Source: a virus
Taxonomy: Monodnaviria > Loebvirae > Hofneiviricota > Faserviricetes > Tubulavirales
Reading direction: 5' to 3' (one strand)
Length of the DNA: 8,509 nucleotides
Virus record (IMG/VR): IMGVR_UViG_2648501784_000014
Part shown: positions 5,865 to 7,076 of the stretch, in pieces
Layout: the number at the start of each line of letters is the position of its first letter
Numbering within the stretch: position 1 is the first letter of the stretch
Program-made: the position numbers and the translations under genes
The notes under the pieces: model-generated
Database searches by the model: none
Told to the model about the DNA's origin: nothing
The model's input: the letters and a program-made list of their open reading frames with translations, nothing else

Positions 5865-7076
5865 ATGCCAGTTATCACCGGAAATCTGGGTCAGGGTAAA
5901 GGCATTGTTGCAGCTTATTTTGCCTCACTTTATTATCGCCGTGGATTACGGGTTGCGGCAAATTATCCGCTTAACACTGAATATATGTCCTCAGGGTCGG
6001 ATAACCCCGTTACGGTTATTCCGGCCATGCCCCGCATTGAAGACTTTGAGCTTCTTGGTCGTGGATGTCCTGAAAATGAAAAAACACGCTTCGGGGCGTT
6101 ATTTCTTGATGAGTGTGCGACATGGCTGAATACCCGTGGTTTTGCCCGTAAGGACAGATTACCGTTAATTGACTGGCTGATACATTCCCGTAAGCTGGGC
6201 TGGGATGTTTATCTGATTGCACAGCATGAAGATATGATTGATTCCCAGATAATTAAGGCGATGGGGGCTAAAATTATTCGCTGCCGCCGTCTTGATGAAT
6301 TACGTGTTCCTGTGATTACGCCACTGATGGAATTATTCAGACCAGGAAAAACAGGGGTTGCATCAGGTAAAAGGGGGATTATTCCTCATTACGTGGCTGC
6401 CAGTACGTTTCTTTATGACGGCACGATTCACGCGGCACGTCGTCCCGTAGATAAAATCATTATCAGGGCTGCGGATTATTACAACGTTTACGACACTAAT
6501 TTCATTTTCTCTGACGGAATGGAGCTGCTTAATGGCCGTTTTGTGGATATGCGTGCTGTTTATTCCGTTTTGCCCGGGCGCACACTTAAAACCATGAATC
6601 CGTTATCTCAACAACCCGAAAAAAAGGCCACCCCACAGAAAAAGCCGTGGGGCAAGTTGATTGCCTTTCTTTTCCTCGTCACCGCGATGATTGCCGTTAC
6701 CCGACATTATTTCTCCGGCGATCGGGAGGTTAGTGCCGCTGTCCCTCCTGTGCCTGAAAGCACCGTGACACCTGCACATCCTTTGCCTGCGTCAACGGTT
6801 GTATCAGAGCTGAGACAGAAAAAACCGGATGTGCTTCCGGTATCAAAGGAGTGGCGGCTTGCCGGATATGTCAGGGGGGCAAGTCCTTATTTTGTGCTGT
6901 TGGGTCCGTCGGGTCAGGTGCGACGTTATACCGCTTTTCAGCCATGGAACGGCAGCGCCACGGAACTGAATGTTGACGGTGAAAGGGTGACGTTCTGGTC
7001 AGGCCCGTCGGGGACGGCATCAAAGGGGGATACTCTGACTGACAAAATGCTTTCGTTTGATGTGAAGGGTAAATAA
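5865..7076 (+). CDS. gI: Assembly ATPase pI (Zot-family P-loop NTPase), 403 aa
   Basis: AAGGGG Shine-Dalgarno 5 nt before ATG 5865. Walker A-like GNLGQGKG and Walker B LFLDEC. The stretch [15 protein letters not shown]...[20 protein letters not shown]...[14 protein letters not shown] aligns with M13 pI LLVLDECGTWFNTRSW...IIDWFLHARKLGWDIIFLVQ...VYCRRLDRITLPFV (recalled). One membrane helix ([14 protein letters not shown]). Confidence 0.9.
6594..7076 (+). CDS. Possible pXI-like product from an in-frame internal start of gene I (160 aa)
   Basis: In-frame ATG 6594 (Met244 of pI) lies just before a basic stretch and the single membrane helix ([35 protein letters not shown]). This parallels M13 pXI, which starts at Met241 of pI. 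No clear Shine-Dalgarno. Confidence 0.3.

Follow-up and report, generated by a model that had tools for sequence, protein, structure and literature searches.

A possible nested pXI-like reading frame opened by an internal ATG of gene I in a filamentous phage of Escherichia coli

Gene I and its candidate internal start

The window analysed here, that is, the whole 8509-base stretch of IMG/VR virus record IMGVR_UViG_2648501784_000014, is that of a filamentous phage (inovirus) of Escherichia coli. Its gene I encodes the inner-membrane assembly protein pI, and an in-frame ATG at position 6594, codon 244, opens a frame that runs to the end of the gene and resembles in its position gene XI, which is nested in gene I of phages M13 and f1. 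The original prediction described this frame as a probable nested pXI-like gene. This prediction is partly supported. The ATG does lie at the right kind of place, but "probable" is too strong a word; a nested gene in gene I is plausible and unproven, and is better described as possible, with about an even chance of being real. The features of gene I are as follows.

5865–7076, plus strand: gene I, pI/Zot-type inner-membrane assembly ATPase, 403 amino acids
5865–6578, plus strand: cytoplasmic ATPase domain, residues 1–238, with an AlphaFold2 predicted local distance difference test (pLDDT) score of mostly 75–94
6549–6551, plus strand: ATG of Met229 in the 'DMR' motif (VDMRAVYS), an alternative but unlikely internal start
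6594–6596, plus strand: candidate internal start, in-frame ATG, codon 244 of gene I
6594–7076, plus strand: candidate nested open reading frame, 160 amino acids, 17.5 kDa, isoelectric point 9.8, the C-terminal 40% of pI, with the stop codon TAA at 7074–7076
6597–6656, plus strand: juxtamembrane linker, residues 245–264, basic, proline-rich and predicted to be disordered
6657–6713, plus strand: single transmembrane helix, residues 265–283 at the Kyte–Doolittle maximum, AlphaFold2 helix 262–283
6714–6827, plus strand: Pro/Val/Ser-rich periplasmic spacer, residues 284–321, predicted to be disordered (pLDDT <50)
6837–7013, plus strand: conserved periplasmic beta-domain, residues 325–383, pLDDT about 90 when modelled alone

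In the AlphaFold2 model of pI, built from a 44-sequence alignment (mean pLDDT 74), the ATPase domain is predicted with confidence as far as about residue 237, and a short helix follows at residues 238–244. Met244 closes this last short helix of the N-terminal domain; the disordered linker comes four residues later and the membrane helix 21 residues later. Given this division of pI into an ATPase domain and a linker–helix–periplasmic module, ATG 6594 stands exactly at the module boundary, and the reading frame indicates that a nested product would contain the membrane helix and the periplasmic domain of pI. The position of the ATG, its frame and the extent of the nested frame (6594–7076) were correctly predicted, as were the basic character of the segment after Met244 (net charge +4 for residues 244–264) and the single membrane helix downstream of it (residues about 262/265–283). 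The description of this segment as amphipathic did not survive: the best helical moment over 11 residues was 0.32, a value reached by 66% of shuffled sequences, residues 244–264 include four Pro and one Gly, and residues 248–259 were modelled as disordered with a pLDDT below 50 and no helix.

Gene I matched the Pfam family Zot (PF05707; E 3e-9, 37 bits against a cutoff of 20.3) and phrog_1675, 'protein I of M13' (E 7e-50), and the pI of f1 is 31% identical to the window pI over residues 4–245. The conserved columns near the end of the ATPase domain are M229, R230, Y233, L236, P237 and G238, and on its sequence the window pI is assigned to a distinct 'DMRAxYSxLPG' subfamily, hereafter 'DMR...LPG'. 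The Walker A motif (window 5880–5903) reads GNLGQGKG, with Gly after the Lys, where P-loop NTPases normally have Ser or Thr, so that it departs from the canonical GxxxxGK[ST]. This GKG form is common to 58 of the 85 proteins of the subfamily, whereas the Ff-like homologues have GKT or GKS; a Walker B-like LDE lies at residues 81–83.

The beta-domain that a nested product would share with pI has conserved residues at W330, R331, R353, G372, E373 and G380. No significant structural neighbour was found for it with Foldseek (E ≥0.25); the weak fold matches were GspC-HR, PilP and DotF, and weak matches to Pfam HofP occurred in three of 24 homologues. Both GspC-HR and PilP bind the N0 domain of secretins. 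In the Ff phages, the periplasmic domain of pI and pXI has been proposed to contact N0 of the secretin pIV (PMC8563730). From this Ff literature a contact between the beta-domain and the secretin is inferred here, and the beta-domain presumably docks on pIV, the resemblance to GspC-HR and PilP being a lead that agrees with this proposal and not a result.

This anatomy also bears on whether a C-terminal fragment might instead arise by proteolysis of full-length pI. For Zot of Vibrio cholerae, a cleavage behind the transmembrane domain that frees a C-terminal fragment of 12 kDa has been reported (PMC7541967), and this precedent is joined here by a match of the 160-residue fragment to the Zot-like family phrog_197 and by the long disordered linkers that flank the helix on both sides. 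However, the reported Zot cleavage is periplasmic, so that its product would be soluble and not anchored in the membrane like pXI, and the active-peptide motif FCIGRL is absent from the translated gene I sequence. Processing of this kind is therefore considered very improbable for the window pI.

Conservation of the internal ATG in close relatives

Met244, together with Asn245, was invariant in all 10 representatives of the close clade, which are 84–98% identical to the window pI. Among the same representatives, the surrounding segment is hypervariable, with 46% of positions 239–264 being variable; in the periplasmic part, the variable share of positions 284–325 is 71%. Most clade members carry the sequence GRMLMTMN, in which three in-frame ATGs fall within five codons (ATG CTT ATG ACC ATG), and an independent lineage at 55% identity (P0013) has GSMLSKMML at this place. 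At least three Met in the eight residues after LPG would be expected at 8e-4 per lineage and were seen in two of eight, which gives a P of about 2e-5 in a test devised post hoc. When lineages at least 50% identical to the window pI were considered, a Met occurred in the eight post-LPG residues in four of eight, against an expectation of 18% (p = 0.04).

The clearest signal came from the inovirus of E. coli A34 (L017), whose pI is 53% identical to that of the window. In its gene I the site GGGGAGGTG (2506–2529) has a Shine–Dalgarno duplex free energy (ΔG) of −12.3 kcal/mol, making it the strongest Shine–Dalgarno-like site of that gene; it lies 7 nucleotides upstream of an in-frame ATG at codon 243 and ranks in the top 0.6% of positions, the gene's own start site reaching −6.9. 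With so strong a site ahead of an ATG, internal initiation here is credible for one relative or more, and within the 'DMR' subfamily L017 offers the strongest in-silico argument for a nested start. In two further relatives, the ΔG at codons 243/244 was −8.1 (L024) and −8.9 (L028).

Initiation signals at position 6594

In the window itself, ATG 6594 has a Shine–Dalgarno ΔG of −2.5 kcal/mol. The bona fide starts of the window range from −3.0 (gene IV) to −10.7 (gene VI), and gene I itself is preceded by AAGGGG with a ΔG of −8.4. The internal ATGs of the reference phages gave −3.1 for f1, at the 27th percentile of its gene, −5.1 for IKe and −6.3 for If1. Because the experimentally proven pXI start of f1 is equally weak, the weak site at 6594 does not exclude its use.

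The 60-nucleotide mRNA segment around ATG 6594 has a folding energy of −3.7 kcal/mol, so little structure that only 2% of the 154 ATGs tested in the window fall in this range, and 99.4% of synonymous recodings are more structured (p = 0.006). A gene-wide scan with 60-nucleotide segments for low structure peaked at codon 243 (z 1.98), and two relatives at 86% identity (L013 and L029) had the same low 60-nucleotide structure, with p of about 0.01. A 97-nucleotide fold at 6594 gave a non-significant z of +1.18, and the positive controls f1, IKe and If1 lacked a low-structure signal at their internal starts. As set out below, the result obtained in a 201-nucleotide context contradicts that from 60 nucleotides, and the low-structure signal at 6594 thus depends on the method.

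The same measures bear on the possibility that a C-terminal product starts at another in-frame codon, either Met229 (ATG 6549) or a non-ATG codon such as TTG265 (6657). Met229 is found in at least 90% of the subfamily members, including those without a linker Met, and TTG265 has GGGG 4 nucleotides upstream with a ΔG of −4.8. The conservation of Met229 is, however, explained structurally by its position inside a predicted beta-hairpin of the folded domain, and its ATG has a Shine–Dalgarno ΔG of −1.5 and average local structure. A start at TTG265, for its part, would leave the product without any of the positive segment by which the helix is oriented. We therefore regard another in-frame start as improbable.

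Weighing the internal start across the pI family

According to Loh et al. (2017; PMC5408679), an internal start occurs within gene I in most filamentous phages, M241 being the start of gp11 (pXI), and both proteins are essential; the f1 sequence and this source confirmed what had been predicted for M13/f1, namely that pXI starts at codon 241 of pI and is essential. Another source describes pXI as "not always conserved" (PMC10011098), and the literature on the generality of pXI is thus divided.

The position of Met relative to the membrane helix was compared in 76 representative homologues, clustered at 50% identity and each with a clear membrane helix. Met was 3.45-fold enriched 11–15 residues before the helix and occurred at exactly −13 in 16 of the 76 (binomial p = 3e-13). 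The motif M-[RK]-[LIMV]-[TS]-[KRN]-[ILV] was present in 22 of them, typically as ...fYMRLTKIYxKKFSR, and is found in f1, IKe and If1; Met at −13 within MRLTKIYxKKFSR is the real signature of the nested gene XI. There was also a secondary excess of Met at −18 to −22: 16 were observed overall where 6.7 would be expected, and 11 where 4.8 would be expected in the non-canonical proteins; Met244, at −21, falls within this bin, which was chosen post hoc.

A number of results weigh against the use of ATG 6594, and most of them are at the same time those expected if no functional nested gene is present, Met244 being an ordinary linker residue, the region serving as anchor and periplasmic domain of full-length pI, and the subfamily working without a separate pXI. 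The 'DMR...LPG' subfamily, including the window pI, lacks the canonical pXI motif, and over its 32 lineages Met was not enriched in the eight residues after the LPG anchor (seven of 32, p = 0.19). Several E. coli homologues at 50–55% identity have no ATG between Met229 and the helix (the P0016 group, P0015 and P0026/P0032). With a Met frequency of 2.5% in the protein, at least one Met would occur by chance in the 26-residue linker with P = 0.48. No Shine–Dalgarno site was found at 6594, where the duplex energy equals the median of the window ATGs (52nd percentile of the 154, and 48th percentile of gene I positions), and no sigma-70 promoter-like site was found inside gene I upstream of it. In a 201-nucleotide context, the accessibility calculated by partition function ranked ATG 6594 at 17 of 25, with a randomisation p of 0.80. 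Among 11 distinct clade sequences, there was neither a dip in synonymous variation nor a detectable conserved nucleotide element upstream of codon 244. Finally, because the Shine–Dalgarno site of gene I is strong, a protein started at 6594 would be made in minor amounts compared with pI.

An ordinary Met244 is a realistic alternative, to which we assign distinctly less than an even chance. It accounts poorly for the invariance of Met244 in a hypervariable segment and for the additional ATGs clustered there in two lineages, for the ATG that L017, L024 and L028 have at the homologous codon behind a strong Shine–Dalgarno site, and for the essential role of pXI in the Ff phages (PMC5408679). The use of ATG 6594 as an internal start is the reading that we favour, with a probability a little short of even.

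Phage genome and distribution of gene I

The window consists of one circular unit of 8135 base pairs plus an exact terminal redundancy of 374 base pairs, positions 1–374 being identical to 8136–8509. The gene order is a P2 GPA-type replication endonuclease, small genes, a major-coat-like gene, pIII, a gVI-like gene, gene I and the secretin gene IV. The genes outside gene I that could be described further are listed below.

903–3002: replication protein, assigned to the P2 gene-A type by PF05840 (E 6.5e-49) and distinct from the Ff pII type
4076–5503: pIII-like gene, with a GGGS/GGGN repeat tract of about 130 residues, far longer than the glycine linkers of Ff pIII
7188–8396, plus strand: gene IV, outer-membrane secretin (Pfam Secretin PF00263, E 3e-24), the partner of pI and, in Ff, of pXI

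The pIII-like protein has a Phage_Coat_A domain in addition to the long Gly/Ser repeat. In RefSeq, the replication protein has 666 amino acids and starts further downstream than the longest open reading frame in the window. The spacer between gene I and gene IV (7077–7187) is 111 nucleotides long, and its RNA is not significantly structured (z = −0.47); among the relatives examined, the two genes lie anywhere from a 4-nucleotide overlap to 409 nucleotides apart. Two related E. coli prophages differ at or next to gene I (L016, 3167–3928; L015, 2943–4156). In one of them a traX pilin-acetylase gene takes the place of the secretin gene after gene I, and in the other an ISEc31 insertion cuts the 3′ end of gene I.

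E. coli E100341 carries gene I, with 99.6% nucleotide identity, in prophage copies arranged in tandem beside hipBA. Among 5426 complete E. coli genomes, gene I had matches in 26 by megablast and in 54 by sensitive blastn, and the viral contigs of IMG/VR include a gene I protein that is 100% identical. A blastn search of GenBank phages with gene I gave no match at the DNA level, and the matches at the protein level were distant; a scan of genome contigs returned 10 loci, most of them too distant to help. No E. coli dif-like 28-mer with up to three mismatches was present in the window or in the prophage locus of E100341. In RefSeq, no nested gene I product is annotated in the E100341 prophage, M13 or f1. 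Within gene I, synonymous variation among the 11 clade sequences is strongly mosaic, being nearly absent at codons 126–150 and saturated at codons 181–205, and this pattern suggests recombination between lineages inside the gene.

Proposed mode of action and significance

Considering these results, the following may be proposed for positions 6594–7076. The region forms the C-terminal module of pI, made up of a basic disordered linker, a membrane helix, a disordered spacer and a small conserved beta-domain. ATG 6594 may in addition act as a weakly used internal start that has no Shine–Dalgarno site, giving a product of 160 amino acids and 17.5 kDa that would be an ATPase-less, membrane-anchored copy of the presumed secretin-docking module. 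This product could then co-assemble with full-length pI in a ring in the inner membrane, as pXI does in M13/f1 according to the Ff model (PMC10175506, PMC8563730). The geometry of the frame, the domain boundary, the conservation of the ATG in the close clade and, in one relative, a strong Shine–Dalgarno site with an ATG at the equivalent codon are established by the sequences; we infer that ribosomes would start at 6594, and the proposal further supposes that the product would be stable and would be needed for assembly.

Across lineages of the subfamily the pattern differs: a strong Shine–Dalgarno site with an ATG occurs in L017, clusters of ATGs without such a site occur in the window clade, and neither is found in some lineages. 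Such a pattern may mean that the 'DMR...LPG' subfamily obtains an ATPase-less partner from evolutionarily labile internal starts, the nested gene being repeatedly gained, shifted and lost, and that pXI either functions independently of its cytoplasmic N-terminus or can be dispensed with where pI expression is ample. This extension to the whole subfamily is speculative, and we hold it to be rather unlikely.

pXI is essential for Ff assembly; that inoviruses other than Ff produce it has for the most part been taken for granted. A usable criterion for a canonical nested gene is a Met that stands exactly 13 residues ahead of the helix as part of MRLTKIYxKKFSR, and a large subfamily, including this E. 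coli prophage, is without that signature. Should ATG 6594 be used, the function of pXI would not rest on its cytoplasmic N-terminus; should it be unused, a whole branch of the inoviruses would have a dispensable pXI. Either outcome would help annotation and models of assembly, and neither would surprise specialists.

Comparison with known systems

The closest parallel is pXI of the Ff phages M13, f1 and fd and of IKe and If1. As in these phages, an in-frame ATG of gene I lies upstream of a single membrane helix, at codon 244 here and at 241/242 there, the product would be without the ATPase domain, the Shine–Dalgarno site is weak as in f1, and the gene for the pIV secretin lies downstream. The original prediction that the arrangement mirrors M13 is borne out in the codon number (244 versus 241) and fails in the details, Met244 aligning with Leu235 of f1. 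Two differences from pXI weigh against a nested gene: the distance from Met to helix, which is 21 residues here and 13 in f1, IKe and If1, and the N-terminus, in which the basic amphipathic M-[RK]-[LIMV]-[TS]-[KRN]-[ILV]-..-KK-[FY]-S-R is replaced by a proline-rich basic linker predicted to be disordered, with a helical moment of 0.32 against 0.53–0.56 in f1, IKe and If1. The candidate product is also longer (160 versus 108 amino acids). Its periplasmic domain gave an hhalign probability of 32% over 20 columns with that of Ff pI/pXI, a level at which homology is not demonstrable, and in the 160-residue fragment the match is to phrog_197, 'Zot-like toxin', in its C-terminal part (E 1.4e-7), whereas f1 pXI matches the C-terminal part of phrog_1675, at 239–353. 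If real, the nested gene is thus not a canonical pXI: its N-terminus is non-homologous and not amphipathic, it lacks the MRLTKIY motif, and its start lies at a different distance from the helix. Since it has neither the spacing nor the N-terminal motif of canonical pXI, the frame is to be treated as a candidate non-canonical pXI-like nested open reading frame and not to be annotated as gene XI.

At the level of the full-length protein, the window pI shares with the pI/Zot family (PF05707; phrog_1675) the N-terminal P-loop domain, one membrane helix, the periplasmic C-terminal domain and a gene placed between gVI and gIV; it differs in belonging to the DMRAxYSxLPG subfamily, in its Walker A of the form GxxGxGKG and in its longer linkers. 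Genes I and IV are 111 nucleotides apart in the window phage and overlap in f1/M13. A second internal start of the Ff phages, that of pX in gene II (annotated in f1, M13 and IKe), uses the same device of in-frame internal initiation to yield the C-terminal part of a larger protein; it concerns a different gene and a different function, the control of replication, and stands only as a parallel to the arrangement considered here for gene I.
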